Assembly (NCBI GenBank): GCA_030691635.1
Contig: JAUYEF010000221.1
Location: 13,929-77,928, forward strand
Direction: 5' to 3'
Length of the DNA stretch: 64,000 nucleotides
Source of the DNA: Bacillota bacterium
GTDB taxonomy: Bacteria; Bacillota; Sulfobacillia; JAUYEF01
In this document: positions 1,924-55,213 of the stretch, piece after piece
Position numbering within the stretch: position 1 is the stretch's first letter
Layout of the letters: every line of letters begins with the position of its first letter
The notes under the pieces: generated by a model
What the model saw: the letters and a program-made list of their open reading frames with translations, nothing else
Database searches by the model: none
What the model was told of the DNA's origin: nothing
Made by a program: the position numbers and the translations under genes

Positions 1924-1942
1924 GCACGCCTCCAGGCCTGGT

Positions 1943-3010
1943 CTAGACCGTGCGCGAAGCTCCGGGCCAGCCAGGTATCAGGCCCGCGCGCACCACTGCT
2001 TTCAGCACTATCGCCGACAACGGGCCGATGATGATCCCGGCGGCTCCGAAAAAGCGGATGCCCAGGTACATCGATAGCAGGGTCAAGAGCGGGTGAAGCC
2101 CGGTCCGCTCCCCGATGATCTTCGTCTCCAGCACCTGCCTGGTCGCGCTCATGACGCCGTATAGCCCGAAAAGCATGACCCCGAAGACCGGGCTCCCGAA
2201 CACGAGGCTGTACAGTGCCCACGGCACGAACACTATTCCGGGCCCGACTATGGGCAGCACGTCCAGCAGGCCGGTGATTATGCCCAGCACCAGAGCATAT
2301 TCTGAGCCCATCAACGAAAGCGCCACTGTGACGATCGCCATCGTGACAAGCACAAGGATCATCTGGGCCTTGAGCAGCCCGACGGTGGACTCGAGCACCT
2401 CGGTCCTGGCCTGGGTAACTTTGCCCGTGGAGATGCCGGGGAAAACTCTCTGCAGCAGGCCAAGCAGCATGTCTTTGTCCCTGCTCACGAAATATGTCGC
2501 GATCACCGTCACGACGAACAGCCCGAACAGCGACGGCAGGCCCTTGACCCCTTCGAAGACAGCGCCCAAGAGTTTCTCCAGCGCGGTGTAGACCCGGCCA
2601 AGTTGCTGGCTCATTGTAGTCTGGAGCGGTGTCGGCAGCGCCGAAGCGAACTCGCCGATTGTCTTCGCCAGGTCTTCGACCATCCCGCTGGCCTGCTTGT
2701 AGTACTGTGGAAGGGAGCCAGAGAGGTTGAAGAGCTCCGTGAACAGCCTCGACAGGCCGATCCCGAGCACCGTGAGCATGATGCCGCATGCAAGCGCCAG
2801 CACCAGACCGCAGGCGAGCGCGCGCGAGATTCGAGCATTCTGCACAAGCCACCGCACGGCGGGCTCCATGGCCACCGCCAGCAGCACAGCGAGCACGAAT
2901 GGGAACACAAACGGCAGCACATATCCCACCAGCACAAAAGCGATGGCGCCATAGAGCAAGAGGTATGAAAGCGATACGAAGAAGCCCCTCAACCGGACAC
3001 CTCCCGTCAC
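1943..3010 (-). CDS. AI-2E family (PerM/YtvI-like) integral membrane transporter
   Basis: 355-aa polytopic membrane ORF. The C-terminal block LGIITGLLDVLPIVGPGIVFVPWALY...GLHPLLTLLSMYLG is typical of the UPF0118/AI-2E (YtvI) family. Confidence 0.75.
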   Translation of the reverse strand: MTGGVRLRGFFVSLSYLLLYGAIAFVLVGYVLPFVFPFVLAVLLAVAMEPAVRWLVQNARISRALACGLVLALACGIMLTVLGIGLSRLFTELFNLSGSLPQYYKQASGMVEDLAKTIGEFASALPTPLQTTMSQQLGRVYTALEKLLGAVFEGVKGLPSLFGLFVVTVIATYFVSRDKDMLLGLLQRVFPGISTGKVTQARTEVLESTVGLLKAQMILVLVTMAIVTVALSLMGSEYALVLGIITGLLDVLPIVGPGIVFVPWALYSLVFGSPVFGVMLFGLYGVMSATRQVLETKIIGERTGLHPLLTLLSMYLGIRFFGAAGIIIGPLSAIVLKAVVRAGLIPGWPGASRTV

Positions 3011-3783
3011 CTGAGCGCCAGGAACAAGTAGTAGGCCACGGGCGCCACGAACATCAGACTATCGAACCTGTCAAGGATCCCGCCGTGGCCTGGTATCAGC
3101 GTGCCGGCATCCTTGACGGAGCAGAATCTCTTGATACAGGATTCCGCCAGGTCGCCGGCCTGCGCCGCGAGAGAGAGTATGATACCGGCAACCACCGACA
3201 GACCCGGCCCTAAACCCGTGAAGCGGGACAGCGCCCACACGGCTGCAGCAGATCCAGCCAGGCCCGCCCAGAAGCCCTCCCAGCTCTTGTTCGGGCTCAC
3301 GGAGGGTGCCATCTTATGCCGGCCGAAGCTCTTCCCGACGAAGTAGGCAGCAACATCGCACGCCCACGTCGCCGCGACGGCAGTGGCAGCAGGCCAGACG
3401 CCCAGGTCCCTCAACAGCACGATATGGGCGAAAGTCAACGGCACGTACACTATGCAGTATATGGTCGCCGCGACGTCGGACTGCCCTACTCTTCCTCCAG
3501 AAAAGACCGGCGCCAGCATCGAAGCCGGCACCGAGAGGACCACAGCCGCGAGCAGCAAGTCGAGCCTCCCCACATGGGCGGCCGCAACGATGGCAACCAT
3601 GCCGCCGTAGGCGACCGGCGTGACAATGTGAAGACCTTTACGACGGAGCATCAGGTCAAGTTCGCCTATCGCGATGCGCGAGACGACCAGGGCCAGGGCC
3701 GATAGCGCATAGCCGCCCTTGTACAGCCCGAAGAGCACCACGGGCCCAAGCAGGAGAGCGCCGACGATCCTGGCCGAAAGCAT
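3007..3783 (-). CDS. cdsA: phosphatidate cytidylyltransferase
   Basis: 258-aa membrane ORF with the CdsA signature SPNKSWEGFWAG...KDAGTLIPGHGGILDRFDS. Directly follows uppS. Confidence 0.9.
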   Translation of the reverse strand: MLSARIVGALLLGPVVLFGLYKGGYALSALALVVSRIAIGELDLMLRRKGLHIVTPVAYGGMVAIVAAAHVGRLDLLLAAVVLSVPASMLAPVFSGGRVGQSDVAATIYCIVYVPLTFAHIVLLRDLGVWPAATAVAATWACDVAAYFVGKSFGRHKMAPSVSPNKSWEGFWAGLAGSAAAVWALSRFTGLGPGLSVVAGIILSLAAQAGDLAESCIKRFCSVKDAGTLIPGHGGILDRFDSLMFVAPVAYYLFLALR

Positions 3784-3792
3784 ATCCTCACC

Positions 3793-4542
3793 TCATGGAG
3801 CCTTGATGCCGCCGAACCGCCTGTCCCGCCGCTGGTATTCGAGTATGCATGAGCAAAACTCTTCCGGGCTGAAGTCTGGCCACAGTAACGGGCACGAAAC
3901 AAACTCCGCGTACGCCGATTGCCAGAGCATGAAGTTGGAGAGCCTGAGCTCGCCGCTCGACCGGATTATCAGGTCTGGGTCGGGCATGCCGGCCGTGTAC
4001 AAGAGCGACGAGAAATCTTTCTCGTCCAGCGCCACGGCGATTTTGCCGGCCCTGATGAGCGAACACACGGTATTCACCGCGTCCATGATCTCGGCCCGGC
4101 CGCCATAGTTGAAGGCGACCTGGAAGTTCAACCTATCGCACGCTGCCGTCTCAGCTTCGGCGCGCTCGATCGCCCGGATGAGGTCGCGGGACAGGCCCTG
4201 GCGCCTTCCTATCACACGGATCCTGACACCGTTCTCACGGTTCTGCTCTATCCCGGAGTCAAGGTATTCCCTGAGGAGATCCAGGAGGCCGCTCACCTCA
4301 GCTTCGGGTCGTTTCCAGTTCTCAGTCGAGAAAGCGAACAGCGTGAAATATGGGATCCCTATATCGCCAGCGGTCCTGACTATACGCTTGAGCGTCTCTA
4401 TCCCGGCCCTGTGCCCCGCGATCCGTGGGAGCCCCCGCTTTCTCGCCCACCGGCCGTTGCCGTCAGGCACCACGGCGACGTGCGTGGGCACGGCGTTCGC
4501 CTTGATCATATTCAGGAGGTTTTCATGTTCTTTGGATCCCAC
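3793..4542 (-). CDS. uppS: isoprenyl transferase / undecaprenyl-diphosphate synthase
   Basis: 249-aa ORF with HVAVVPDGNGRWA, FAFSTENWKRP and RSSGELRLSNFMLWQSAYAEF motifs. Confidence 0.95.
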   Translation of the reverse strand: MGSKEHENLLNMIKANAVPTHVAVVPDGNGRWARKRGLPRIAGHRAGIETLKRIVRTAGDIGIPYFTLFAFSTENWKRPEAEVSGLLDLLREYLDSGIEQNRENGVRIRVIGRRQGLSRDLIRAIERAEAETAACDRLNFQVAFNYGGRAEIMDAVNTVCSLIRAGKIAVALDEKDFSSLLYTAGMPDPDLIIRSSGELRLSNFMLWQSAYAEFVSCPLLWPDFSPEEFCSCILEYQRRDRRFGGIKAP

Positions 4543-4562
4543 GGTAGGGCCTCCCGTTACCT

Positions 4563-4586
4563 AAAACCCCCGCCGCCCGGCGGGGG
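4563..4586 (-). terminator. intrinsic terminator candidate between the frr/PASTA unit and uppS
   Basis: The minus-strand RNA reads CCCCCGCC-GGGC-GGCGGGGG (8-bp GC stem, 4-nt loop) followed by UUUU. It lies 8 nt after the stop of the 68-aa ORF. Confidence 0.55.
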
Positions 4587-4593
4587 ATACCGT

Positions 4594-4800
4594 TCACAGG
4601 ACCAGTTCTGGAAGGGCGGGAGCTACCACCAAATGAACCCGGCCGTCTGCGCCCGTCCTTTGCCGTATGACCCTGAGGGCGCCACCGGGCCTGGGCCTCC
4701 CCGGCGGCGACGACTCTTCTATGTCAAATCCGACGTCCGATTCCCGGAGCACAGCCAGAGCAGCATCCAGCCGCAGCCCCGTCACCGACGGCACGGGCAT
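4594..4800 (-). CDS. small single-PASTA-domain-like protein (hypothetical)
   Basis: 68-aa ORF whose ATG shares one base with the frr stop (TGATG), suggesting translational coupling. VPSVTGLRLDAALAVLRESDVGFDIEE...GALRVIRQRTGADGRVHLVVA resembles the PASTA fold pattern (vPdv.G....A...L...gl......g.V..Q.P..G..v). Confidence 0.45.
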   Translation of the reverse strand: MPVPSVTGLRLDAALAVLRESDVGFDIEESSPPGRPRPGGALRVIRQRTGADGRVHLVVAPALPELVL

Positions 4801-5357
4801 CAGACTTCCATGATCTCCTTCTCTTTCAGTTCGAGGACGCGCTCCAGCTCCTTGACGTACTTGTCGGTGAGCTTCTGTACCTCTTCAAGTGCGCGGTGGT
4901 ACTCGTCTTCCGATATCTCCCTGTCGTCCTCGAGGCTTTCCAGAAGCTCATTCGCGTCGCGGCGATGGTTTCTCACGGCCACGCGCTCTTCTTCGGCCTT
5001 CTTCCTGACGGTCTTGACGATGTCCTGGCGCCTCTCCTGCGTCAGCTGAGGGATCACCAGCCTGATGACGTTTGAGTCGCTGGTGGGCATTATCCCGAGG
5101 TCCGACTTCATGATGGCCTTCTCGATGTTGCCGAGCTGCGTCTTGTCCCAGGGCTGGATCACCAGGAGCCTGGGTTCCGGCACCGCTATGGTCGCCAGCT
5201 GGTTGACAGGAGTGGGAACCCCGTAGTACTGGACTATCACTTTCTCAAGTAGCGCAGGGTTGGCCCTGCCCGCTCTGACGCCCGCAAGTTCCTTCCTGAA
5301 GACCTCAGCGGTCTTCCTCATCTGGTCCTCCGTGTCTTTGAGGATCTCCTTGATCAC
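4800..5357 (-). CDS. frr: ribosome recycling factor
   Basis: 185-aa ORF starting [41 protein letters not shown] start with a GGGAGGG Shine-Dalgarno 6 nt upstream. Confidence 0.95.
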
Positions 5358-6081
5358 GTGCGTCCCTCCCCACGTAGGTACCTATGCTTTCTCCCATCAC
5401 AGCCCGCAGGATATTCCCACGCGCGCTTATGTCGAACACGATCATCGGGATCCCGTTATCCATGCAAAGGGAAGTGGCTGTGGCATCCATGACCCCCAGC
5501 CCTTTCCTTAATATGTCCATGTACTTGATGCTCTCAAAGCGCCTGGCCGCAGGGTTGGTGTTCGGGTCAGAGTCGTACACCCCGTCGGTGCCCTTCTTCG
5601 CCATGAGGATGACCTCGGCCTCGATCTCCGCGGCTCTCAGCGCGGCTGTCGTGTCGGTGGAGAAGTAAGGGTTACCGGTGCCGGCGGCGAATATCACGAT
5701 ACGGTTCTTCTCGAGATGCCGTATCGCCCTTCTTCGTATGTATGGCTCGGCGACCTCTCGCATTTCGATGGCCGTCTGGAGCCTCGTGGGCACACCCTGG
5801 TGCTCTATGGCGTCCTGCATGGCGAGCGCGTTGATCACGGTCGCGAGCATGCCCATATAGTCCGATGTGGCCCGGTCCATGCCCTTCGCGGCCCCGCGCG
5901 AGCCGCGCCAGATGTTTCCACCGCCGATGACCATCGCGACCTCGATGCCCATCTCATTGAGTTCTTTGAGCTCCAGAGCGATGGTATCGACGATCTCCCT
6001 GTCGATTCCGGTCCCTCTCGAGCCCGCAAGAGCCTCTCCGCTGATCTTGAGCACGACTCGCCGGTAACGTGGCGTGGGCAA
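5305..6081 (-). CDS. pyrH: UMP kinase
   Basis: 258-aa ORF with [21 protein letters not shown] and [20 protein letters not shown]. Its C-terminal tail extends 53 nt into frr. Confidence 0.93.
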
Positions 6082-6108
6082 TCTTCAAACCCCCCGGGGA
6101 CTCGGTTT

Positions 6109-6711
6109 CTACAGAGGCTCGGCGACTTCAAACCTCACAAAGCGCCTGATCTGCATGTTCTCGCCGAACAGCGCGATCTTCTGGTTCAGAAGGTCCCGGA
6201 CGGTGATACTGTCGTCTTTGATGAACGACTGTTCCAACAGGCACGCTTCGGCGAAGAACTTGTCCATACGACCTTCGACGATCCTGTCCACGACCTTTTC
6301 CGGTTTGCCTTCCTCGAGCGCCCGTGCTTTCTGCACGGACCGTTCACGGTCCAAGATGTCCGCCGTGATCTCTTCGCGCGACAGCCATACCGGCCTCGCC
6401 GCCGCCACCTGCATCGCGATGTCGTGGGCGAACGCTATGAACTGTGGGCTTCTGGCCACAAAGTCCGTCTCGCAGTTGACTTCAACAATTACCCCGATCC
6501 TGCCTGCAAGATGGACGTAGCTTTCTATGACTCCGGCCTGCGCGGTCCGCCCGGCCTTTTTCGCGACGGTGACCAGGCCCTTCTGTCTTAGAAACTCTAT
6601 CGCCTTGTCCACCTCGCCCGCGCACTCGAGAAGCGCCTTCTTGCAGTCCAGCATGCCGGCTCCAGTGCGCTCGCGCAGTTGCTTGACCAGTTCTGTGGTG
6701 ACTTCAGCCAC
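6109..6711 (-). CDS. tsf: translation elongation factor Ts (short form)
   Basis: 200-aa ORF starting MAEVTTELVKQLRERTGAGMLDCKKALLE. GTG start with GGAGGG 6 nt upstream. Confidence 0.93.
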   Translation of the reverse strand: MAEVTTELVKQLRERTGAGMLDCKKALLECAGEVDKAIEFLRQKGLVTVAKKAGRTAQAGVIESYVHLAGRIGVIVEVNCETDFVARSPQFIAFAHDIAMQVAAARPVWLSREEITADILDRERSVQKARALEEGKPEKVVDRIVEGRMDKFFAEACLLEQSFIKDDSITVRDLLNQKIALFGENMQIRRFVRFEVAEPL

Positions 6712-6734
6712 AGGGTTCCCTCCTGTCTGGTTCG

Positions 6735-6772
6735 AAAAACAGGGCGACCGCTTCTACAGCCGCGAGTCGCCC
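6735..6772 (-). terminator. hairpin plus U-run (attenuator or terminator candidate) between rpsB and tsf
   Basis: The minus-strand RNA reads GGGCGAC-(internal CGC...GCG)-GUCGCCC followed by UGUUUUU, just before the tsf Shine-Dalgarno. Confidence 0.45.
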
Positions 6773-6788
6773 CATGTGAGCGGTTTCA

Positions 6789-7487
6789 CTATTCTACCAC
6801 TTGCACCCCTTGCTTACCTTCGAGCACTGCGTCGGCCATCTTCGAAGTCAGCAGGCGCACGGCGCGGATGGCATCATCGTTGCCCGGTATCATGTAGTCG
6901 ATTTCGTCCGGGTCGCAGTTGGTGTCGACTATGGCGACGATCGGGATGCCGAGCCTCCTGCACTCCGCAACTGCGATCCTTTCCTTCCGCGGGTCTATCA
7001 CGAACACGGCCTCGGGGAGCCCTTTCATGCCCTTTATGCCGCCGAGGACCTTGGCGAGTTTCTCCTTCTCGTGCAAGAGCCGCGAGACTTCCTTCTTCGG
7101 CAGTTTCTCGAACTCGCCTGACTGTTCCATCTCCTCAAGCTGCACCAGACGGTCTATCCGGCGCCTGATGGTCGCGAAGTTCGTCAGCATTCCGCCCAGC
7201 CAGCGTTCGTTCACGTAGAACTGCCCGCAGCGCTGCGCCTCCTCAGCGACCGACTGCTGAGCCTGCTTCTTCGTGCCTATGAAAAGCACGCGGCCTCCGC
7301 GGAACGACACGTCGCGCACGTGGTTGTAGCAGTCCTCGATCATCTTCACTGTCTTCTGCAGGTCGATGATGTAGATGCCATTGCGCTCAGTATAAATATA
7401 GGGCTTCATTTTCGGGTTCCAGCGCCTCGTCTGGTGACCGAAATGAACCCCTGCCTCCAAGAGCTGCTTCATCGTTATGACCGACAA
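6789..7487 (-). CDS. rpsB: 30S ribosomal protein S2
   Basis: The ORF track gives 6789..7613. The conserved N-terminus (M)[26 protein letters not shown] starts at the TTG at 7487, with GGAGG 8 nt upstream. The upstream 42 codons look non-coding. Confidence 0.93.
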
Positions 7488-7628
7488 TACATACACCTCC
7501 GTGGGTTTTTTAGGGCGCTCCGCCCCGCCTCCGCCGCTTTCATCGGTCTCTCCCTGCCCCGCCGGCACCCAGAGAGCCATCAAGCAGCGTGTGAACTGCG
7601 CACGAACTGCCATCCCGTGCGCCGCTAG

Positions 7629-9387: not shown

Positions 9388-10170
9388 TCAGGCGAGGTCG
9401 TGCTGGTACCGGGCGAGATAGCTCCTGAGCCGCAGCATCGCTCTGGTGTGCAGCTGCGATATCCGCGACTGGGAGATGCCCATGAGCACACTGATCTCCT
9501 TCGCAGTCAGCCCTTCATAGTGATACAGCGCAACCAGCATCCGCTCCCGCTCCGGTAGCCTGTCGATCGCGCGCGCGAGCACGCGCTTCCTGTCTTCTAT
9601 CTCCACCAGCCTTTCCGGGTCGGCGGCGGCGGGGTCCTCTATCATGTCGATCGCGCGGATGCCGTCATCCCCTTCAACCTCAGTGACCCACAGCTCATCC
9701 AGCGAGACCAGGATCGTGCCGGAGAGGGTCGAGAGGTGCCTGGCGAACGCCTCCGGCGACATGCCGAGTTCAAGCGCGATTTCCTCATCCGTGGCGGAGC
9801 GGCCCAGTTCCGATTCAACCTTCGCGTACGCTCTCTCCACGGCGCGCGCTTTTTGGCGTACCCCAGAGGGAACCCAGTCCAGGGCCCTGAGGCCATCGAT
9901 GATCGCCCCGCGGATACGTGCCACCGCGTAGGTCTCAAACTTGACTCCTCTGGATGGGTCGTACCTCTCGATCGCCTCCATCAGCCCGAAGATGCCCGAT
10001 GAGACAAGGTCGTCCACATCCACGTGGGGCGGGAGCGAGATCGCGACTCTGCCTGCGACATACTTGACAAGCGGCAGGTACCGGACAATGATCTCGTCCC
10101 TCAGATGCCTGTCGCCCGCGGATTTGTAGGCGGCCCAGACATCTGGCCGCACAGGCGCCTGCGCGCTCAT
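9388..10170 (-). CDS. sigD: flagellar RNA polymerase sigma factor (sigma-28 / SigD / FliA)
   Basis: 260-aa ORF with region 2 (YLPLVKYVAGRV...GLMEAIERYDPSRGVKFETYAVARIRGAIIDGLR) and the region 4 HTH (LTAKEISVLMGISQSRISQLHTRAMLRLR). Its start overlaps the flhA stop (ATGA). Confidence 0.9.
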   Translation of the reverse strand: MSAQAPVRPDVWAAYKSAGDRHLRDEIIVRYLPLVKYVAGRVAISLPPHVDVDDLVSSGIFGLMEAIERYDPSRGVKFETYAVARIRGAIIDGLRALDWVPSGVRQKARAVERAYAKVESELGRSATDEEIALELGMSPEAFARHLSTLSGTILVSLDELWVTEVEGDDGIRAIDMIEDPAAADPERLVEIEDRKRVLARAIDRLPERERMLVALYHYEGLTAKEISVLMGISQSRISQLHTRAMLRLRSYLARYQHDLA

Positions 10171-28766: not shown

Positions 28767-28785
28767 CTTCGGTTCCCTCCCAGAC

Positions 28786-28819
28786 AAAAAGCCCTCCATC
28801 CGATTAAGGAAAAAGGGCT
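28786..28819 (-). terminator. terminator-like hairpin of the flgB riboswitch expression platform
   Basis: The minus-strand RNA reads AGCCCUUUUUCC-UUAAUC-GGAUGGAGGGCU. That is 12 stem positions: 11 pairs (two of them G.U) and one mismatch. It is followed by a U-run (UUUUG). It lies between the aptamer and the flgB Shine-Dalgarno. Confidence 0.55.
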
Positions 28820-28825
28820 CACAAA

Positions 28826-28925
28826 GCGTGCTGGTCCTTCGGCAACCCGGCGGTCATGGCCATCTGGCTTTAGACCCGTAGCTTTGCGTCCCCACCTTTC
28901 GGTGGGTTTGCCCTTTCGATAACCC
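28826..28925 (-). promoter_or_regulatory. c-di-GMP-I (GEMM-I) riboswitch aptamer in the flgB leader
   Basis: The minus-strand RNA reads CGAAAGGGCAAACCCACCGAAAGGUGGGGACGCAAAGCUACGGGUCUAAAGCCAGAUGGCCAUGACCGCCGGGUUGCCGAAGG. It contains the GEMM-I hallmarks: GCAAA, a GAAA-capped hairpin, GACGCAAAGC, and CGGG...GCCGGGUUGCCG. The core is 37/41 identical to the second copy at 48.19 kb, with an A-U to G-C covariation in the GAAA hairpin stem. Confidence 0.85.
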
Positions 28926-46528: not shown

Positions 46529-47914
46529 CTAGCAGGGAATTTTCAGACCGGCAAAGCACGCGGCGACGGTGGAGAGCTGGTCTTGCGGGACCGTCCGCAC
46601 ATCCATCACGAGCCTGCCCTCGTGCAGGCGGGCGATGACCGGCGGAGACGCCTGCCTGAGCTTTTTCGCGAGTGATGCCGCGCTTTCTCCTGGGACCTCC
46701 ACAGAGACGAGCCACGACTCGAGCCATACACCGGGGAACGACCCCCCGCCGGGACACGACTGGCCCCGCAGCACGCAGAATCTTCCCTGAGGTACCGCTT
46801 CCTTCAACATGCTCGCCAGGGATCCGGCCATATCCTCAAGTTTCTCGCCCGGCCTGGTAAGCATCTCGAGGACAGGTATGTCCTCCAGCGGCCTGCCGAA
46901 AGCGTAGATTCGAAGGGTCGCGGAGAGGGCGGCCAGCGTGGTCTTGTCCGGCCGCAGAGCCCTGGCGAGAGGGTGACGCTTCACTCGCGCGAGATACTGT
47001 GCCTTCCCGGCGATGATCCCGGCCTGTGGCCCGCCGAGCAGCTTGTCTCCGCTGAAAGTGACAATATCGCAGCCCAGGGCGATAATCTCAGGGACCAGCG
47101 GCTCATCCCCCAGGTCCATCCCCGGGAGCCCAGTCATCAGGCCGCTGCCACAGTCATAAAGCAGTGGTATGCCCTTGGACTGGGCGAGCGCCTGCAGCTC
47201 TCCGGCTGCGGCCGACTCCACAAACCCGATGATCCGGTAGTTGCTTGGGTGCACCTTCAGGATGGCAGCCGTGTCCGGGGTGATGGCCTTTTCGTAGTCG
47301 GCAAGCCGGGTCCGGTTGGTCGTGCCGACCTCTATGAGTTTTGCCCCGCTCTGCTCCATGATCTCTGGAATCCGGAACGACCCGCCGATCTCAACCAGCT
47401 CCCCCCTCGCCACGATCACCTCACGTCCCCGCGCGAGCGCGGAAAGAGAGAGAAGCACCGCTCCAGCGTTATTGTTGCAGACGATAGCGGATGCCGCTCC
47501 GGTGACTCGCGTGACCAGTTCCTCCACATGGACCTGCCTGGACCCGCGTTGGCCCGTCACAAGGTCGGTTTCAAGGTCGCAGTACAGGGACGCCCTCTCC
47601 ATCGCCTCGATCGCCTGCCTGGGCAGCGGGGCGCGGCCCAGGTTCGTGTGAATGACCACGCCTGTCGCGTTTATCACCGGTGAAGGTGTAGCGCGCGCCA
47701 TACGCTGCGCGAGCAGGGCGCACTCCTTGGCGATCGTTTCCACTGCGGGCGCCGGGCCCTCGCCTTCCTCGAGCTGGCGTCTCAGGTCCTGCAGCACTTG
47801 CCTGCAGGCGGCTATGATGGCCTCTCGCGGCACCCCTGGGATTTCCCGCAGCGCGGGCTGCGATAGGATCGAATTGACCGAGGGTATCTCACGCATTGTG
47901 GTCCCAAGCCCCAA
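46529..47914 (-). CDS. selA: L-seryl-tRNA(Sec) selenium transferase
   Basis: 461-aa ORF with INATGVVIHTNLGRAPL and the PLP-lysine block FSGDKLLGGPQAGII. TTG start with GGAGG 8 nt upstream. Confidence 0.88.
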   Translation of the reverse strand: MGLGTTMREIPSVNSILSQPALREIPGVPREAIIAACRQVLQDLRRQLEEGEGPAPAVETIAKECALLAQRMARATPSPVINATGVVIHTNLGRAPLPRQAIEAMERASLYCDLETDLVTGQRGSRQVHVEELVTRVTGAASAIVCNNNAGAVLLSLSALARGREVIVARGELVEIGGSFRIPEIMEQSGAKLIEVGTTNRTRLADYEKAITPDTAAILKVHPSNYRIIGFVESAAAGELQALAQSKGIPLLYDCGSGLMTGLPGMDLGDEPLVPEIIALGCDIVTFSGDKLLGGPQAGIIAGKAQYLARVKRHPLARALRPDKTTLAALSATLRIYAFGRPLEDIPVLEMLTRPGEKLEDMAGSLASMLKEAVPQGRFCVLRGQSCPGGGSFPGVWLESWLVSVEVPGESAASLAKKLRQASPPVIARLHEGRLVMDVRTVPQDQLSTVAACFAGLKIPC

Positions 47915-48055
47915 CCGTCCGACCTCCCACTCCGGGGTCTACCTGTCTTATCAATTATACATTATCCCCGCCGGCTCTTGCCTTCTGCACCAATAGTGTC
48001 CACACGCAGGTGGATAAGTTGCGCCCCGGGCATAGAAAGAGCCAGATTGGCGGCT

Positions 48056-48082
48056 TACATTTCGGCGATAGCCTGCCGATAA
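48056..48082 (+). promoter_or_regulatory. sigma-28 (SigD/FliA)-type promoter candidate upstream of the tad riboswitch
   Basis: TACATTTC-N11-GCCGATAA compared with the enteric sigma-28 consensus TAAAGTTT-N11-GCCGATAA. Equivalently, TACA-N15-GCCGATAA compared with the B. subtilis SigD consensus TAAA-N15-GCCGATAT. The -10 element is perfect or near-perfect, the -35 is weak, and the spacing is exact. Confidence 0.3.
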
Positions 48083-48184
48083 AGAACTTGGAGACACCAC
48101 AATCTCCATCATCATTTCCAGCAGGCGAAGCGCTCTATTCTTCTAAAGGCAGGACACAGTTTCACCAGCAAGGCTTGACCTCAA

Positions 48185-48282
48185 AACGACAAAGGCAAAC
48201 CCGCCGAAAGACGGGGACGCAAAGCCACGGGTCTGTGACGGGATCGTTTGCCGTTATGACGGCCGGGTTGCCGAAAGGTCAG
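48185..48282 (+). promoter_or_regulatory. c-di-GMP-I (GEMM-I) riboswitch aptamer in the tad-operon leader
   Basis: CGACAAAGGCAAACCCGCCGAAAGACGGGGACGCAAAGCCACGGGTCTGTGACGGGATCGTTTGCCGTTATGACGGCCGGGTTGCCGAAAGG. It has the same hallmark blocks as the flgB copy, with a variable P3 apex (ACGG...CCGT). It lies 120-150 nt upstream of the first tad ORF. Confidence 0.85.
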
Positions 48283-48431
48283 GGGAAAGATGCCCCTCAC
48301 CCGTCGCCTCCTCCGGCTGTCACCGGGAAGACCCCCTTACCAGGATCTCTCCGGCATCGCCCAGCGCAGCAGCAACGAGCGGCAACAGGAACCGGACCCA
48401 TTTCATGCCACCGGATGAGGGCGGGGATCGC

Positions 48432-48839
48432 ATGGTGCTCGACGCAATCAGACGTATGCTGCACAATCAGGACGGTCAGGCTCTCGTCGAAATCGCCCTG
48501 CTTCTTCCCATCGTCTGCCTGCTGCTGTTCGGCATAACGGAGTTCGGACGTGCCTACCAGGCCTACCTCGCCCTGGGGCATGCCGCGAGAGAGGGGGCGC
48601 GGATCGGCTCGCTCGGGGGCTTGGACAGCGAAATCGACACGACCGTGAGGAACTGCGCTTCCGGGCTGAATACGGCGAGCATCGTGGTAGCCATAACCCC
48701 ATCGGAGCCGGAACGGCTTACGGGGACGGTGGTCACAGTCCAGGTCAGCTACTCCTTCCCCATCGTTGTGCCTATCATCTCCAACATCTCGGGTACGACC
48801 ATACCTCTTTCCGTAAGTCTCAGTATGCGTGTCGAGTAA
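48432..48839 (+). CDS. TadE-like pseudopilin / pilus assembly protein
   Basis: The N-terminus ...HNQDGQALVEIALLLPIVCLLLFGITEFGRAY is the TadE-family motif (G-x4-E followed by a hydrophobic helix). Start set at ATG 48432 (GAGGG upstream); the track ORF starts at 48405. Confidence 0.75.
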   Translation: MVLDAIRRMLHNQDGQALVEIALLLPIVCLLLFGITEFGRAYQAYLALGHAAREGARIGSLGGLDSEIDTTVRNCASGLNTASIVVAITPSEPERLTGTVVTVQVSYSFPIVVPIISNISGTTIPLSVSLSMRVE

Positions 48840-48852
48840 AGGAGGAGTCTCC

Positions 48853-49764
48853 ATGTGGCGACACATGTCTGGACAGGACGGGTACGTGTTGCCCGTCTTC
48901 GTTGTGTTCATGACCGTCGTCATCGGGATTGGGGCCATCACGCTTGACGCCGGGAGAATGTACACGACCAAACTGATGCTGAGGAACATCTCGGATGCAG
49001 CGGCTCTTGCGGGCGTGGCCTCGCTCCCCGGGAGCACCTCTAATGCGATCGCAACGGCCATAGAGTACGCGGTGCTAAACGGCGCAGACCCGGACAAAGT
49101 CCTGGTGGAGGTGAGCAGCAACAACGACAAACTCATGGTTGCCGTCACCAAGACCTTGCAGCTCAATTTTGCGGGGCTTATCTCTGCCGGTACCGTTAAC
49201 ATCAGTGCCACTTCCACCGCAGGAATCGGCGTCACCAGGCAGGCCAGAATGGCACAGCCATTCGGCATTGAGGACGCAGTTTTCGTGATCGGTGAATCCT
49301 ACGTATTGAAAGTCTCACCCCATAGCTCAGACCCGCCCCCGTACGGCAACTTCTATGCGCTGGCACTCGGCCTTCCAGGCGCTAAGACTTATAGTCAGAA
49401 CATAATGTACGGCTACGACGGCTGGATATCGGTTGGGGACATGATCGAAACCGAGCCGGGTAATATGGATGGTCCCACTTCAGACGGTGTGCGGTACCGC
49501 ATCAACCAGGACCCGGGCGCCACATTCGACAAATTCGTCCCGTCATCGCCAAGGGTCATCCTTATCCCCATTGTCGATTCGTTCGAAGTGAATGGACGAA
49601 CGACAGTCAGGATCGAGGGCTTCGCCAGTTTCTTCCTCGAGAGTTATAACCTCTCTCAAGACGAGATCGTCGGGCGGTTTATGCGCAGGATCGTCCCGGG
49701 GGACGCTGCCTGGGACGGTGGAGTCGCTGACTACGGCACCTCTACAGTAAAACTGATGAGATAG
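48853..49764 (+). CDS. TadG-like (Tad_N domain) pilus assembly protein
   Basis: GYVLPVFVVFMTVVIGIGAITLDAGRMYTTKLMLRNISDAAALAG matches the putative Flp-pilus-assembly TadG N-terminal domain. Start set at ATG 48853 (AAGGAGG 7 nt upstream); the track ORF starts at 48829. Confidence 0.7.
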   Translation: MWRHMSGQDGYVLPVFVVFMTVVIGIGAITLDAGRMYTTKLMLRNISDAAALAGVASLPGSTSNAIATAIEYAVLNGADPDKVLVEVSSNNDKLMVAVTKTLQLNFAGLISAGTVNISATSTAGIGVTRQARMAQPFGIEDAVFVIGESYVLKVSPHSSDPPPYGNFYALALGLPGAKTYSQNIMYGYDGWISVGDMIETEPGNMDGPTSDGVRYRINQDPGATFDKFVPSSPRVILIPIVDSFEVNGRTTVRIEGFASFFLESYNLSQDEIVGRFMRRIVPGDAAWDGGVADYGTSTVKLMR

Positions 49765-49774
49765 GAGAAGACGC

Positions 49775-50497
49775 ATGGAGAAATCTCGACTATTGAGGGC
49801 AATCGTAATACCGCTGCTCATCGGTGCTGTGGCTACCGCGCTCGTCGCCTGGTACATCCAGAGCGAGGAGAAACGGCTTTCGCCGAGCGACATGATACCC
49901 GTCGTCGTCGCCTCCAGGCCGGTCCCTGCGAAAACGATCCTGACTTCGGACGTGCTCAGCGTCAAGGGCGTGCCCCGTGCCTACGCGCCTCCCAATACTC
50001 TGACGAAAATCGAGGATGCCGTGGGCCGCGTTACGACTGTGGCGCTCAGCGAAGGCGAGCCGCTGATGGCTGCGCGTGTCGTCCAGAAGGAGAAGGCCGT
50101 GGGGCTCTCTTATTATATTCCGCAGGGCATGAGGGCCGTGACGATGTCCGTGAACGAGATCATCGGCAACGCCGCGTTCCCGGAGCCGGGCGACAGCGTG
50201 GATGTCCTTGGAACGTTCAACTTAGCCGGGCAGGACAAGACAATGACGGTGCTCGAGCGTTTGCCCATCCTGGCCGTCGTCCGCGACACCGAGGCCAAGG
50301 GCCTGCAGCAAAGAGAGCTAAAGGGCTACAGCTCTCTCACCCTTGCCGTCACGCCTCAGCAGGCAGCCACGCTGGTTTGGGCGGAGGAACGGGGCCGCTT
50401 GCGACTACTCCTCAGGCCTAAGGATTCCACCGACTACGTCGGTCACATCGAGGCCAACTTCCAGACGCTGTTTGGTGTTCAGAAGCCGCCGAAGTAA
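49775..50497 (+). CDS. cpaB: Flp pilus assembly protein CpaB/RcpC (SAF domain)
   Basis: 240-aa ORF with an N-terminal TM helix, a SAF-like segment (VVVASRPVPAKTILTSDVLSVKGVP) and the RcpC-like remainder. AGGAG Shine-Dalgarno. Confidence 0.75.
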   Translation: MEKSRLLRAIVIPLLIGAVATALVAWYIQSEEKRLSPSDMIPVVVASRPVPAKTILTSDVLSVKGVPRAYAPPNTLTKIEDAVGRVTTVALSEGEPLMAARVVQKEKAVGLSYYIPQGMRAVTMSVNEIIGNAAFPEPGDSVDVLGTFNLAGQDKTMTVLERLPILAVVRDTEAKGLQQRELKGYSSLTLAVTPQQAATLVWAEERGRLRLLLRPKDSTDYVGHIEANFQTLFGVQKPPK

Positions 50498-50554
50498 AGG
50501 CCTTTGGCCAGAGCGGCCCGGTACATCATCTGACCAGATCCCGGGGGTAAATCC

Positions 50555-51805
50555 TTGGAACGAACACGTGTCTTAATCGCTACGCGCGACCCGTCGAGGT
50601 TCGAGAAGATGATCCCCACAATCGTGGCCACAGGACGGTTCACAGTCGTGGGAATCGCGAGCAATGCAGAGACGGCGCTGGATGAATGCAAGAGGCTCAA
50701 CCCACACGTCCTGATTGCGGGCACCGATTTCCAGTCGCCCGACGTATGGCACCTGGTCAGGAAGGCCCAGGCGCTACACAATGTGGCGGTAGTGCTTGTC
50801 GGCGGATCGCAGGACACAGCTTTTCTGAGACGGGCCATGCAGTCAGGGGCGAAGGATTTCCTGTTCGAACCCCTCAAGGCCGAAGAGGTCATCGCATCTT
50901 TAGATCAGGTCCGAGATTCGGGGGGCCTGGCCAACGGGGCCGAGCCTTTGGAGGCAAAGCCACAGGGCAAGATCATCACCATCTTCGGCACAAAGGGTGG
51001 AGTGGGCAAGAGTTTCATCGCGGCGAACGTCGCCAGTAGCGCCCAAATACAGTCCAAGAAGCGCTGCGTGATAGTGGACCTGGACCTGGAGTTCGGTTGC
51101 CTGGCGGCTCTCTTCGGCCTGAGGCCCCGAGCCTCTATAGTAGATCTGTGCAGGACAGAGGGGCAGATCGAACCCGAGACCGTGGAGAAAGTGCTGATGC
51201 AGGCACAGCCCAGCCTGGACTTGCGTGTGCTGGTCTCCCCGCCCACACCGGACCTCGCCGCCGAGGTTGAGGGCGAGGGACGCAGGGTGAAAGGGCGGAG
51301 CTACGTCACGGATATCCTTTCGTGCCTGAAGCAGTCATACGACTACATCTTCGTCGACACGGCATCGAGCTTCCGTGAGACCAACATCGCCGCCCTGGAC
51401 ATGTCGGACGTGATCCTGGTGGTGACGGCTCCCGATATCCCGACCCTCCAGAATACCGGCAAGTGCCTTGACATCTTGCTTGAGGCGTTCAAGTACCCTC
51501 AGGAGAAGGTCCTGGTGGCCCTCAACAGAGCCGACGGAGGCGCCGGGCTGACCACTGAGGACATCGCCAGGGGCCTGCAGTACAGCATCAAGTACGAGCT
51601 GCCCAGTGATGGGCGGAATGTCACCTGGTCGGCCAACTGCGGTCGCCCACTTATCGTGGAGCGTCCGAAGACACCTGTCGCCGAAGCTGTGAACGCCATG
51701 GCGAGCGGACTCATCTGGCAAGTGACGAACGAACGGGCGAAAGACAAGCCTGCCAGAAGCCACCGGAGGCGTGGCGTGCTCGACTGGCTTACGTCGCGCA
51801 AGTAA
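50555..51805 (+). CDS. TadZ/CpaE: receiver-like domain fused to a ParA/MinD-type ATPase
   Basis: The N-terminal CheY-like fold (RVLIATRDPS...VLIAGTDF...VVLVGG) is followed by the deviant Walker A IITIFGTKGGVGKSFIAANVA. Confidence 0.8.
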   Translation: MERTRVLIATRDPSRFEKMIPTIVATGRFTVVGIASNAETALDECKRLNPHVLIAGTDFQSPDVWHLVRKAQALHNVAVVLVGGSQDTAFLRRAMQSGAKDFLFEPLKAEEVIASLDQVRDSGGLANGAEPLEAKPQGKIITIFGTKGGVGKSFIAANVASSAQIQSKKRCVIVDLDLEFGCLAALFGLRPRASIVDLCRTEGQIEPETVEKVLMQAQPSLDLRVLVSPPTPDLAAEVEGEGRRVKGRSYVTDILSCLKQSYDYIFVDTASSFRETNIAALDMSDVILVVTAPDIPTLQNTGKCLDILLEAFKYPQEKVLVALNRADGGAGLTTEDIARGLQYSIKYELPSDGRNVTWSANCGRPLIVERPKTPVAEAVNAMASGLIWQVTNERAKDKPARSHRRRGVLDWLTSRK

Positions 51806-51822
51806 CCTAGGAGGGTGACCCA

Positions 51823-53286
51823 GTGGCAACACTCTACAGCCGTCTGAAGAGCATCGAAGAGATGAAGAGCCGGTCGGTCAGGGACCAGTCCAGTTCTGCC
51901 GTTCCAAAACCCGAGACGATCGCCGCGGCGTTCCCGTCGAATATCGTCCCGATTCCTGACCAGGATGGCCTGGTGGACCTCGTTCCACTACCTGCGCCCC
52001 GGGCGCAGCAGAAGCATCAGGCTACCGCGACCCCGAACCCGTCTCTTGTCTCAAGGCTGCAGGACAAGCTCCTCAGCGAAGTCGATCTCACGTCGGCCAC
52101 ACGGTCCGTCATGGTCGACGATTCCCAGAGAGATAAGATCCGGCAGAAGGTCACGGAGATCCTGTCGCAGGAAGAAGGCGTCTCCCCGCTCGAGCGTGAC
52201 CAGGTGACGGAGTCGTTGATGGCCGAGATAGTGGGCTTCGGTCCCATACAGCCGCTGCTCGACGACCCGACGATCACAGAGATCATGGTCAACAAACCTA
52301 ACCAGGTGTACATAGAGCGGGCGGGCAAGATTCACCAGACAGACGTTCAGTTCCGCGACCAAAAGCACATAATGCAGGTCATAGAGAAGATCTGCGCGCC
52401 GCTCGGCCGGAGAATCGACGAGTCGAGCCCGATGGTGGACGCAAGGCTGCCGGACGGTTCTCGTGTCAATGCGATCATTGGGCCGCTGGCGTTGAGGGGG
52501 CCGTGCCTTACGATCCGTAAGTTCTCTCGCAAGCCTTTGACGATCGGCGACCTGGTCAAGTTCGGCACACTCTCAAGGAACATGGCGATGTTCCTCGAGG
52601 CGACCGTGCGCTCTCGCGTCAACGTCATAGTGTCCGGCGGCACCGGCAGCGGCAAGACCACGACGCTCAACGTGCTGTCGTCATTCGTGCCGAACGACGA
52701 GCGTATAGTGACGATCGAGGACGCAGCCGAGCTCCAGCTCGGCCAGGAACATGTCGTGGCGCTGGAAGCGCGCCCGTCGAACCTTGAGGGCCGTGGTGAG
52801 ATCACCATCCGGCAGCTCGTCAAGAACGCACTGCGCATGAGGCCCGACCGTATCGTTGTCGGTGAGGTGCGTTCAGGGGAGGCGCTGGACATGCTCCAGG
52901 CGATGAACACCGGCCACGACGGCAGTCTGACTACGGGACACGCGAATAGCCCCAGGGATATGCTTTCCAGGCTTGAGACCATGGTGCTGATGGCAGGCAT
53001 CGAGCTGCCGATCAGGGCCATCAGGGAGCAGATCGCGTCGGCCCTTGATGTGATCGTCCACCAGGCCAGGTTCAAGGACGGTTCGCGGCGGGTTACGCAC
53101 ATCACAGAGCTCCAGGGTATGGAAGGCGACATCATCTTGCTGCAGGATATCTTCGTGTTTGAACAGACCGGCATAGACCCTGAGGGTAAGATCCTCGGCC
53201 GCTACCGGGGAACGGGCATAAGGCCGAAATGCTTTGAGCGGTTCCTGGCATACGGGATAGATCTCCCGTTGCACGTTTTCGAGTGA
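51823..53286 (+). CDS. Tad secretion ATPase TadA/CpaF
   Basis: 487-aa ORF with Walker A VSGGTGSGKTTTLNVL, Asp/His boxes (IVTIEDAAELQL; GHDGSLTTGHAN) and RPDRIVVGEVRSGEA. GTG start with GGAGGG 7 nt upstream. Confidence 0.92.
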   Translation: MATLYSRLKSIEEMKSRSVRDQSSSAVPKPETIAAAFPSNIVPIPDQDGLVDLVPLPAPRAQQKHQATATPNPSLVSRLQDKLLSEVDLTSATRSVMVDDSQRDKIRQKVTEILSQEEGVSPLERDQVTESLMAEIVGFGPIQPLLDDPTITEIMVNKPNQVYIERAGKIHQTDVQFRDQKHIMQVIEKICAPLGRRIDESSPMVDARLPDGSRVNAIIGPLALRGPCLTIRKFSRKPLTIGDLVKFGTLSRNMAMFLEATVRSRVNVIVSGGTGSGKTTTLNVLSSFVPNDERIVTIEDAAELQLGQEHVVALEARPSNLEGRGEITIRQLVKNALRMRPDRIVVGEVRSGEALDMLQAMNTGHDGSLTTGHANSPRDMLSRLETMVLMAGIELPIRAIREQIASALDVIVHQARFKDGSRRVTHITELQGMEGDIILLQDIFVFEQTGIDPEGKILGRYRGTGIRPKCFERFLAYGIDLPLHVFE

Positions 53287-53296
53287 GGTTATATCT

Positions 53297-54277
53297 ATGA
53301 AGGAACTCCTGCTCGGCGCGGTATTTGTTCTCGTCTACTACGCAGCGGTGTCGGTTTTCGGCGGCCGCATCGCGCCTCAAGAAGAGGTCCAGAACCAGCT
53401 GAGACGGCAGGTCCAGATGCGGTCCACGCGCGAGCCGCTGCAGACGCAGTCGCTCGTCGCGGAGTCTCCGCGTGCGGGGCATGTGAGGCAGAAATTCTTC
53501 TCGAAGATCGACAAACAGCTGTTGACCCGGCGGGGCACGTCCGATATCGCGGCAAAGCTCAGGAAAGCCGACATCAAGCTGCAGGCGTCTGAGTTCATCC
53601 TGTCCTGCGCCGGGTCGGCGATCGGGCTCGTGGGTCTGGCTACGGCGTTCCGGCTAGGGCCGCAGCTACGGTTGGCAGCGCTGGTGATGGGAGTGTGGCT
53701 TCCGTTCTTCGTCGTCAATTTCAAGATAAACCAGCGTGTGCATGCTTTCGACGCACAGCTGTCGCCCTGTCTCGCCATGCTGTCCAATGCGTTGAAGTCA
53801 GGGTACTCCATTCACCAGGCAATAGACGTTGTTTCCCGGGAAATGCCGGCGCCTCTCTCCAAGGAATTTGGCCAGATAATGAAGGAATCGAAACTCAACA
53901 TAGCGCTCGAGGATTCTTTGCGCAACATTGCCCGAAGGATGCCCAGCTCCGACCTTGACCTTGTTGTGACAGCCGTGTTGATCCAGAGGCAGGTCGGCGG
54001 CAATCTCGGCGAGGTGCTCGACGCGATCAACTCGACCATACGCGACAGGATCAAGATCAAGGGCGAGATCAGGACGCTCACGGCCCAGGGGCGCATTTCC
54101 GGGTGGATCGTCGGAGCCCTCCCGTTCATACTTGCGGTGATGCTGTTCTCGTTGAACCGCGAATACGTCTCTGTGCTGTTCAGCCACCCGCTCGGCCTGT
54201 CGATAATAGGCCTTGGCCTGGTCATGCAGGTGATGGGAATCATGCTGATCCGGAGGATTGTGAATGTCGAGGTGTAG
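53297..54277 (+). CDS. type II secretion system F-family platform protein TadB
   Basis: 326-aa membrane ORF with the T2SSF domain (ALKSGYSIHQAIDVVSREMPAPLSKEF...LVVTAVLIQRQVGGNLGEVLD). Confidence 0.85.
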   Translation: MKELLLGAVFVLVYYAAVSVFGGRIAPQEEVQNQLRRQVQMRSTREPLQTQSLVAESPRAGHVRQKFFSKIDKQLLTRRGTSDIAAKLRKADIKLQASEFILSCAGSAIGLVGLATAFRLGPQLRLAALVMGVWLPFFVVNFKINQRVHAFDAQLSPCLAMLSNALKSGYSIHQAIDVVSREMPAPLSKEFGQIMKESKLNIALEDSLRNIARRMPSSDLDLVVTAVLIQRQVGGNLGEVLDAINSTIRDRIKIKGEIRTLTAQGRISGWIVGALPFILAVMLFSLNREYVSVLFSHPLGLSIIGLGLVMQVMGIMLIRRIVNVEV

Positions 54278-54280
54278 GCC

Positions 54281-55213
54281 GTGATGGACAAGACTGGCTT
54301 GATGATGGTGGTCTTCGCGGCCGGAACTCTGATGGCGTTCTTGTTCTTCTCAGGCAGGCCAATCCCTGAGATAAGCAAGCGTGCGTCAGAGATACGGAAG
54401 CAGAAGACCCCAGAAGAGGTCGAGGCCGAGGAACTGGCCAGACCGTTCTCCGAGCGGGTTATCACGCCTTTGATCGATTCCCTGTCGACGGTCACCCAGA
54501 GGATGATGCCGGGCACCATGATGGCCCGGTTGAGGACGAGGCTGCAAGAAGCAGGCCGTCCGGTGAGCGTCGAGCGGTTCCTGGGGCTGAAGATGATAGC
54601 CGCCGCAGCCACACTGGCGTTGTTCTTGTCGGTCCTTTTGCCTACCCAGCCGGCGGAGAAGCGGCCGATGTCGCTGCTCCTGGGCATCGTCTGCGCTCTA
54701 TCGGCTTTCAACCTGCCGGACTTCTGGCTCTCCCGGAAGGGCGAGCATCGTAAGGTCGCCATGAGGCGGTACCTCGCCGAAGTCATGGACCTGCTCTGCG
54801 TCTCAGTCGAGGCAGGGCTCGGCTTCGACGGCGCCGTCCAGAAAGTGGCCGAGAAGTTCAGAGAGCCGGTTGCCGGCGAATTCAAAAGTTACCTGATAGA
54901 GGTGCGCCTGGGTAAGAGCCGCTCAGAGGCGCTGCGAAACCTGGCCAAGAGGACAGGGCTTCCGGAGATGCAGACGTTCGTGGCGGCGATTGTCCAGGCA
55001 GACCAGCTGGGCGTCAGCATAGCGACCGTTCTGAGGACTCAATCGGACGCATTACGGACGAAGAGGCGCCAGCAGGCAGAAGAGCGGGCGATGAAGGCAC
55101 CCATCAAGATGCTCATTCCGCTGGTGTTCTTCATCTTCCCCACTCTGTTTCTCGTGCTGCTGGGCCCGGCGGCCATCCACTTCATGACGACGCTCAAAGG
55201 CACAATACCTTAG
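54281..55213 (+). CDS. type II secretion system F-family platform protein TadC
   Basis: 310-aa membrane ORF with the T2SSF domain (LPDFWLSRKGEHRKVAMRRYLAEVMDLLCVSVEAGLGFDGAVQKV...FVAAIVQADQLGVSIATVL). Confidence 0.85.
   Translation: MMDKTGLMMVVFAAGTLMAFLFFSGRPIPEISKRASEIRKQKTPEEVEAEELARPFSERVITPLIDSLSTVTQRMMPGTMMARLRTRLQEAGRPVSVERFLGLKMIAAAATLALFLSVLLPTQPAEKRPMSLLLGIVCALSAFNLPDFWLSRKGEHRKVAMRRYLAEVMDLLCVSVEAGLGFDGAVQKVAEKFREPVAGEFKSYLIEVRLGKSRSEALRNLAKRTGLPEMQTFVAAIVQADQLGVSIATVLRTQSDALRTKRRQQAEERAMKAPIKMLIPLVFFIFPTLFLVLLGPAAIHFMTTLKGTIP

Follow-up and report, generated by a model that had tools for sequence, protein, structure and literature searches.

A predicted class-I c-di-GMP riboswitch without an intrinsic terminator in the leader of a Tad pilus operon

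How might a riboswitch for cyclic di-GMP (c-di-GMP) control a Tad pilus operon whose leader contains no intrinsic terminator? The question is raised by a stretch of 64,000 nucleotides (nt) from a Bacillota bacterium (contig JAUYEF010000221.1; the whole stretch is called the window here), in which the genes selA and tadE diverge from a gap of 517 nt (47915-48431), not of 490 nt as the original prediction for this DNA had it. That prediction had placed a second class-I c-di-GMP riboswitch in the gap, upstream of the Tad/Flp operon. The whole window was subjected to an Rfam cmscan, which returned exactly two riboswitch matches, both from clan CL00126. One of them is a full-length match to the tad leader at 48185-48276 on the plus strand (RF03167, 76.3 bits, E 2.5e-16), and the riboswitch proposed for this site is thus recovered by a covariance model. 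The cmscan output displays only the top-scoring clan member at each site, so that overlapping lower matches of CL00126 are hidden. With our own covariance model R1, the aptamer scores 105.3 bits. It shares its strand with the TadE-like gene and ends 156 nt before the ATG at 48432, a cis-regulatory position; the start codon was fixed at this ATG because all close TadE homologues are 135 amino acids long. Both core strings named in the prediction, GGCAAACCCGCCGAAAGACGGGGACGCAAAGCCACGGGTCT (48194-48234) and GACGGCCGGGTTGCCGAAAGG (48258-48278), are where it had put them. Its span of 48185-48432 has the position right, but the end takes in the first base of the start codon. Permissive Rfam scans of 47915-48190 and 48277-48460 for other known RNAs, such as the pilus-associated 6C motif, gave noise (E >= 0.67). 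The bases that contact the ligand are the canonical ones, the element is conserved, its helices covary, and it precedes tadE on the same strand with no intrinsic terminator in between; as far as sequence can tell, it is a genuine, conserved class-I c-di-GMP riboswitch aptamer in the leader of the Tad operon.

The aptamer can be laid out helix by helix. P2 with its GAAA loop occupies 48200-48215 (the tetraloop itself 48206-48209), P3 occupies 48223-48269, and C48218 and G48262 form the interhelical pair that corresponds to C44-G83 in the numbering of Vc2. The apex of P3 had been described as self-complementary, and it is (GACGG/CCGUU). In about half of the GEMM RNAs, P2 carries a GAAA tetraloop and P3 an 11-nt-type receptor. 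In the seven leaders of the window type (see below) the receptor reads UCUGUG...UUAUGA without variation, with GU in place of the AA platform, whereas all other tad-associated aptamers have UCUAAG...(C/U)AUGA and keep the AA platform (alignment A4). Non-canonical receptors among GEMM RNAs were already noted by Weinberg in 2007 (PMC1950547).

The top Rfam model for the tad aptamer is the c-di-GMP-I-GGC variant (RF03167, gathering score 59), and it is still the best after removal of the first 14 nt of the aptamer. The name GGC is said to list the bases at positions 20, 47 and 92. The consensus lines of the two models differ at one place in the conserved core, which is GACGC-A-AAg in RF01051, the parent class, and GACGC-G-AAg in RF03167. 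The tad aptamer reads GACGC-A-AAG and, lacking the G of RF03167, is left without a match in that column by cmscan. Its pocket equivalents are G48194 for G20, A48221 for A47 and C48271 for C92, in the numbering of the Vc2 sequence. In Vc2, G20, A47 and C92 contact the ligand (PMC4744006; PMC5888326), and the contact list C46, A47, A48, A49 and G50 anchors the numbering (PMC7288161). The better score of RF03167 for this aptamer and for those of its close relatives would fit an element that is a specificity variant rather than a c-di-GMP sensor, be it of the GGC type or of the cGAMP-binding type GEMM-Ib. Such a variant is most improbable, as A48221 agrees with RF01051 where the RF03167 consensus has G, as position 20 is still G and not the A of GEMM-Ib (it is the change G20A that confers cGAMP binding; PMC7288161), and as two 5'-truncated copies of the same leader type, L087 and L090, reach 68 and 62.7 bits on RF01051, well above its gathering score of 35. 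Both GGC-variant and cGAMP specificity were discarded on the pocket nucleotides. RF03167 outscores RF01051 because it treats the P3 apex as a loop, which suits the atypical receptor region of this clade. We judge the RF03167 label, on the evidence of these bases, to be an artefact of model competition and file the element under the parent class. The aptamers of the window and of L080, L082, L085, L088, L089 and L009 are all labelled GGC by clan competition, yet position 47 is A in each. Annotators may be misled here: clan competition in Rfam tags aptamers with atypical P3 apexes as GGC despite a canonical pocket.

Seven distinct leaders share the order of a divergent selA, the aptamer and tadE (the window, L080, L082, L085, L088, L089 and L095), with 145-156 nt between aptamer and start codon. 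At the P2 pair 20-27, the window, L088 and L082 have C.A, L085, L080 and L089 have C-G, and L095 has U-A. Among 22 distinct tad-associated aptamers, 98.3% of the cells are paired and 13 of the 21 pairs show compensatory changes, figures that lean towards the structure since the alignment was fitted to the covariance model; none of 500 shuffles came as high, and slid controls paired at 44% or less. The helices P2 and P3 and the GC/GC junction pairs are supported by covariation in this set. Of the 79 genome loci identified with the TadE alignment, the 11 with the closest TadE include 7 in which the aptamer precedes the TadE-like gene, and the other 68, which are more distant, include none; among 80 metagenome loci, 12 have the aptamer. 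Some related loci carry two GEMM-I aptamers near their tad genes: those of L011 are at 655-743 (minus strand) and 3404-3504 (plus strand), one of them on the opposite strand about 2.7 kb upstream, and those of L160 at 3-88 and 559-645.

The second riboswitch match of the window lies upstream of flgB. The two copies are identical at 37 of 41 core positions, as had been counted before, and the predicted compensatory change at core positions 10 and 19 (G-C in the tad copy, A-U in the flgB copy) is there. Position 18 makes the C.A mismatch in P2 of the tad copy, and position 33 turns a C-G pair into U.G. The view that these are two functional paralogues and not a recent duplication is supported, in that the tad copy is near-invariant in the seven leaders while their flanks diverge, and in that the helices covary among the 22 aptamers. 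The flgB aptamer is followed by a canonical U-tailed terminator and is probably an OFF switch like Cd1 of Clostridium difficile. The loop of this terminator (region 28785-28837, minus strand) contains CCUUAAUCGG, which resembles the complement of CCGAAGG in the aptamer. No U-tailed terminator was found on the plus strand between 47700 and 48900. Both the lack of one before tadE and the difference from the flgB platform had been foreseen; one genome thus uses the same aptamer class with two different platforms, with a terminator at flgB and without one at tad.

The short hairpin AGGGGAAAGATGCCCCT (48281-48297) and the tract CCTCCTCC (48307-48314) that had been pointed out downstream of the tad aptamer are both present. 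The 5' flank of the aptamer may pair with a 3' partner to extend P1; this partner is the best duplex of the flank in all window-type leaders, always lies 2-4 nt past the aptamer, and the pairing is kept by different sequences (CUUGACCU/AGGUCAGG, CCUCCAA/UUGGGGG and CCUCCA/UGGAGG). The 5' arm of the following hairpin, H1, is a G-run that overlaps the 3' strand of the extended P1, and a hairpin is kept at this position in 7/7 leaders though its sequence changes. For the seven leaders, RNAalifold gives a closing helix between 48300-48316 and 48411-48427, the Shine-Dalgarno (SD) region. Leaving aside the SD region, the platform has no invariant run longer than GAGCGGCAAC (48377-48386). This run belongs to an element, E, in which CGGCAAC complements the aptamer 3' strand GUUGCCG (48267-48273) and CGAGCG..CA complements UG.UGCUCG at the start codon. 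Element E is among the top two duplex sites in six leaders and pairs with the start region in the minimum free energy (MFE) folds of the window type. When the G-run was blocked, which mimics a closed P1, the modelled accessibility of the SD dropped in five of the seven leaders, and a conformer with E forced onto the aptamer came within a few kcal/mol of the aptamer fold and had a more open SD in five of six. Together these folding models suggest a four-strand OFF design. Whole-leader folding at equilibrium, run with the aptamer free or enforced, was set aside; long-range pairings dominate it, with a z-score of 0.24 and no clear switch.

More distant relatives show the aptamer in front of another kind of platform. 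In L091, L096, L001/L097, L003, L103, L004/L114, L008 and L105 a U-tailed terminator follows after 25-30 nt, and past it come a strong AAGGAGGUG ribosome-binding site, an flp pilin gene (PF04964 in L091) and then tadE. The TadE proteins of these flp carriers are 46-61% identical, and their aptamers are canonical RF01051 matches of 79-94 bits. Complementarity between the aptamer 3' strand and the terminator is clear in L004 (reached in 0/300 shuffles), moderate in L096 and L001 (13/300 each) and L105 (26/300), weak in L091 (41/300) and within the range of shuffles in L003, L103 and L008. In L004 and L105, the MFE fold turns from antiterminator to terminator once the aptamer is enforced. The 5' flank of the aptamer can moreover form a long-range helix with a site downstream of the terminator, of 13 bp in L091 (683-697 with 868-882, just before the flp ribosome-binding site; 0/200 shuffles) and of 11 bp in L001 (1/200). 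This helix fits the logic of an OFF switch, because it can form only in read-through RNA with P1 open. It covaries, and L103, L008, L096 and L003 have it as well. In these models the terminator-type flp-tad riboswitches of the relatives look like OFF switches, and the window clade has, judging from the comparison of the loci, lost both the flp gene and the terminator.

Upstream of the aptamer, by 103 nt, lies a predicted promoter of the sigma-28 (FliA/SigD) type. Its GCCGATAA matches the sigma-28 -10 consensus at 8/8 positions, and TACA, separated from it by 15 nt, stands as a TAAA-like -35 element. The same GCCGATAA consensus stands at -15 to -8 in Pseudomonas aeruginosa fliC (PMC12784957). 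The promoter block is invariant in six close relatives (alignment A7), and the pattern TAMA-N15-GCCGATAW matches only the loci of this clade; the window has two more GCCGATAT matches, both inside open reading frames (ORFs). Transcription would start at about 48090, at the base of a hairpin (48088-48108) that is conserved and may stabilise the 5' end. A tad start downstream of 48282 had been named as a finding that would speak against the original prediction; the predicted promoter lies upstream instead (48056-48082), and none of the other contrary computational results named with it turned up. No sigma-70-type promoter was found in 47700-48900, including the stretch from the aptamer to the gene. 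One candidate, TTTCCA-N15-TATTCT at about 48125-48150, was rejected for its wrong spacing and poor -35 element.

We tentatively propose, with slightly less than an even chance of being right in full, that the element is a functional class-I riboswitch in a leader of about 340 nt and acts as a translational OFF switch of the tad operon. The leader would be transcribed from the sigma-28-type promoter. Binding of c-di-GMP would close P1 and its extension, which would leave the C-rich tract and/or CGAGCGGCAAC free to cover the weak ribosome-binding site and the start codon (48411-48441). Translation of tad would then fall, and Rho-dependent polarity might add to this in the untranslated, C-rich leader. 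In the ligand-free RNA, the G-run beside the aptamer would fold into H1 and the invariant element could capture the aptamer 3' strand, which would give freer access to the start region. The sign would be the same as that of the terminator riboswitches before the flp-tad operons of related bacteria. We lean towards this sign, through lowered translation of tad, although both the sign and the level of control are derived mainly from the analogy with the relatives and from the promoter context.

Several observations weigh against the proposed OFF switch. In other bacteria c-di-GMP usually promotes adhesion pili. The pairing energies of the flank are within the range of shuffles; the SD is hidden as well in shuffled platforms (about 0.2 unpaired on average) as in the real ones (0.03-0.37); and the duplex of element E with the aptamer 3' strand is matched by shuffles, 16-28% of which contain a perfect 7-mer complement. 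Neither the pairing of the anti-SD with the SD nor that of element E with the aptamer exceeds composition-matched shuffles, and neither was accepted as demonstrated. Both modelled states keep the SD mostly paired, with small differences, and for L095 one model gives the opposite sign, the SD being more open with the aptamer forced (0.55 versus 0.04). As the platform of the window cannot be aligned with the terminator platforms of the relatives, the OFF sign may not be inherited. Finally, the 5' flank (CCUC/CCUCC) is itself anti-SD-like and could cover the SD when P1 is open, which would give an ON switch. In that case the flank (GACCUC / GCCUCC) and the C-rich tract would keep the ribosome-binding site paired without ligand, and c-di-GMP would lock the flank in the extended P1, rearrange H1 and open the site, so that pili are made at high c-di-GMP. 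The second-best duplex partner of the flank is in fact the SD region in five of the seven leaders, at +134 to +138, and activating class-I riboswitches are known beside repressing ones, such as Vc1/gbpA (PMC4744006). Yet this duplex is no better than in shuffles, the models go in the opposite direction in five of seven leaders (G-run block) and five of six (conformer with E on the aptamer), the related flp-tad leaders look OFF, and a motility-type promoter fits co-repression with the flagella. An ON switch is less likely than an OFF switch but is a live rival.

Transcript fate could also be the primary output, with ligand-dependent folding of 48293-48400 exposing or hiding a Rho loading site or a ribonuclease site and leading to premature termination or decay without an intrinsic terminator. 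The absence of such a terminator and the composition of this segment (48 C versus 26 G in 108 nt) are in keeping with it, and Rho- or RNase-dependent outputs are documented for the ribB and lysC riboswitches (cited in PMC11218506); but the C-richness may simply reflect the high G+C content of the genome (62.5% in the window), and the invariant SD and start region point to translation. This reading is a rival as well, though a rather unlikely one. The aptamer might, lastly, be a relic that was left after the loss of the flp gene and the terminator and no longer regulates. The two parts that follow the aptamer in the relatives are indeed missing in the window clade, and the platform pairings do not rise above chance. 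A relic would hardly have stayed almost invariant, however, while the neighbouring sequence fell to a mean column identity of about 79-82% and TadE to only 75-93%, nor would the states of the P2 pair 20-27 (C-G, U-A, U.G and C.A) have preserved pairing, and we give this explanation next to no credence.

The predicted promoter of the tad leader connects it to the flgB riboswitch. The window encodes a FliA/SigD protein with all three Sigma70 regions (r2, r3 and r4), which is likely the sigma factor of the tad promoter. The fliA gene adjoins flhA in a minus-strand chain of flagellar ORFs that starts behind the flgB riboswitch; we infer that it is co-transcribed with flgB, and the flgB riboswitch then probably controls fliA as well. 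If so, c-di-GMP would shut tad twice, by less sigma-28 and by the tad leader itself. A sigma-28 promoter together with fliA behind the flgB riboswitch suggests a feed-forward loop between two riboswitches. The class-I riboswitches of C. difficile are OFF switches, and its sigD gene is part of the flgB operon (PMC11477304). The fullest version, in which the two riboswitches form a two-tier RNA circuit, the terminator-less tad platform evolved from a terminator-type ancestor after the loss of flp, and the 11-nt element toggles between the aptamer 3' strand and the start codon, is speculative and, taken as a whole, unlikely. Were the tad switch ON, the sigma-28 promoter would make the loop an incoherent feed-forward loop, with a pulse of tad at the motile-to-sessile transition and Tad pili fired only briefly on leaving the motile state. 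Downstream of the flagellar cluster (757-7613, minus strand), the apparent gene order is rpsB, tsf, pyrH, frr, uppS, cdsA, dxr and an rseP-like gene (rpsB identified by Pfam, the others judged from their N-terminal sequences), which resembles the fla/che-sigD-rpsB neighbourhood of Bacillus subtilis.

The tad operon behind the leader (48432..55213, plus strand; Table 1) has the same gene order in L080, L082, L083 and L089. No entry of the protein collection is identical to its TadE; the closest proteins (75-93% identity) are metagenomic, those further away carry the names Bacillota, Firmicutes or Clostridia, and the best match in the genome collection is 54% identical. GGCGGGGAT and ATGGTG, in the ribosome-binding and start region, are invariant across the window clade. 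No Pfam match to a prepilin peptidase or a secretin was obtained for any of the seven operon genes. A search with the Flp protein of L091 (tblastn) and a motif scan detected no flp pilin gene in the leader or the 64-kb window. A hidden or decayed flp in the leader was dismissed on the same empty searches, and gene callers put no gene there in five relatives. An upstream ORF of 42 amino acids on the plus strand, from an ATG at 48290 (5 nt past the G-run) to a TGA at 48418, was also rejected; its ATG is absent in all relatives, and the ORF is probably meaningless. On the selA side of the gap, the block AATTATACATTAT (47951-47961) is invariant and reads TGTATAAT on the minus strand, likely the extended -10 element of a selA promoter.

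Table 1. Coordinates of the predicted features in the window, with the basis of each assignment
Feature	Position	Strand	Basis or remark
Predicted sigma-28 (FliA/SigD)-type promoter	48055..48082	+	TACA 48056-48059, 15-nt spacer, GCCGATAA 48075-48082
Stem-loop UUGGAGA-CACCACAA-UCUCCA at the predicted leader 5' end	48088..48108	+	Hairpin listing (minus strand), alignment A7
5' flank CUUGACCU, proposed 5' strand of extended P1	48174..48181	+	Pairs with AGGUCAGG at 48276-48283
c-di-GMP-I (GEMM-I) aptamer	48185..48276	+	Rfam, model R1, covariation
Upper P3 with variant 11-nt GAAA-tetraloop receptor	48232..48260	+	Alignment A4
Hairpin H1 (GGUCAGGGG-AAAGAUG-CCCCUCACC)	48277..48301	+	Every MFE fold and RNAalifold consensus
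C-rich tract CCCGUCGCCUCCUCCGG	48300..48316	+	Predicted pairing with ribosome-binding region
Hairpin H2	48323..48354	+	Position conserved, sequence varies; RNAalifold, compensatory changes at 3 pairs
Hairpin H3	48359-48383	+	RNAalifold
Invariant element E CGAGCGGCAAC	48376-48386	+	11 nt
Ribosome-binding region CCGGAUGAGGGCGGGGAUCGC and start codon ATG (48432-48434)	48411..48434	+	Conserved in clade
selA	46529-47914	-	Divergent, upstream of tad leader
TadE-like	48432-48839	+	Pfam; heads seven-gene operon
TadG-like (TadE/G-like)	48829-49764	+	Pfam
CpaB/RcpC	49775-50497	+	Pfam
TadZ-like, receiver (REC) domain and ParA-like ATPase	50555-51805	+	Pfam
CpaF/TadA ATPase	51823-53286	+	Pfam; NCBIfam TadA-family 345.7 bits, under curated cut-off 373.15
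TadB	53297-54277	+	Pfam
TadC	54281-55213	+	Pfam
fliA/sigD (sigma-28)	9388..10170	-	TIGR02479 FliA_WhiG 264.8 bits (cut-off 189.6)
Paralogous c-di-GMP-I aptamer upstream of flgB	28838..28922	-	RF01051, 88.7 bits (cmscan)
U-tailed terminator behind flgB aptamer	~28825-28785	-	Read from sequence, AGCCCT...AGGGCTTTTTG

The tad element is one more ordinary representative of a well-known RNA family, and the missing terminator is its only unusual trait; our knowledge of the riboswitch class itself is unchanged by it. What it adds is a well-supported c-di-GMP-I riboswitch in the Tad pilus regulon of an uncultured, high-G+C Bacillota-like lineage. Worth noting are its platform without a terminator, the variant of its receptor and its link to sigma-28. 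Should the sigma-28 promoter and the linkage to fliA hold, the locus would offer a compact natural feed-forward wiring between two riboswitches and a tractable case of the rebuilding of a platform after a gene deletion.

The first description of GEMM RNAs already tied them to genes for pili and flagella, cpaA and flgB among them (PMC1950547). With Vc2 of Vibrio cholerae and Cd1 of C. difficile (RF01051), the tad copy shares the three-helix aptamer, a P2 capped by GAAA, a receptor region within P3, the pocket G20/A47/C92 together with the interhelical pair C44-G83, and the place in the 5' untranslated region of a surface-appendage operon. It differs from them in that it has no terminator but a 156-nt C-rich platform that ends at a weak SD, as well as GU for the AA platform of the receptor and a C.A mismatch in P2. 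The RF03167 variant resembles it in the top score and the poorly conserved P3 apex, but the tad copy has A and not G after GACGC, and with it the pocket of the parent class. The terminator riboswitches of the flp-tadE relatives have a homologous aptamer, tad genes and flank pairing just 3' of the aptamer; the window clade lacks their terminator, strong AAGGAGGUG SD, flp and long-range helix and has the sigma-28-type promoter. Long platforms, in which translation and transcript fate may be joint, are also known from Bc1 of Bacillus thuringiensis and from ribB and lysC of Escherichia coli, but Bc1 has two terminators and the latter two sense other ligands. The flgB-sigD circuit of C. difficile (PMC11477304) likewise combines a terminator-type class-I riboswitch before flgB with a FliA/SigD gene in the flagellar cluster on the same strand. 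C. difficile has its type IV pili under a class-II ON riboswitch, whereas here a predicted SigD-type promoter would drive a pilus operon with a class-I riboswitch of its own.

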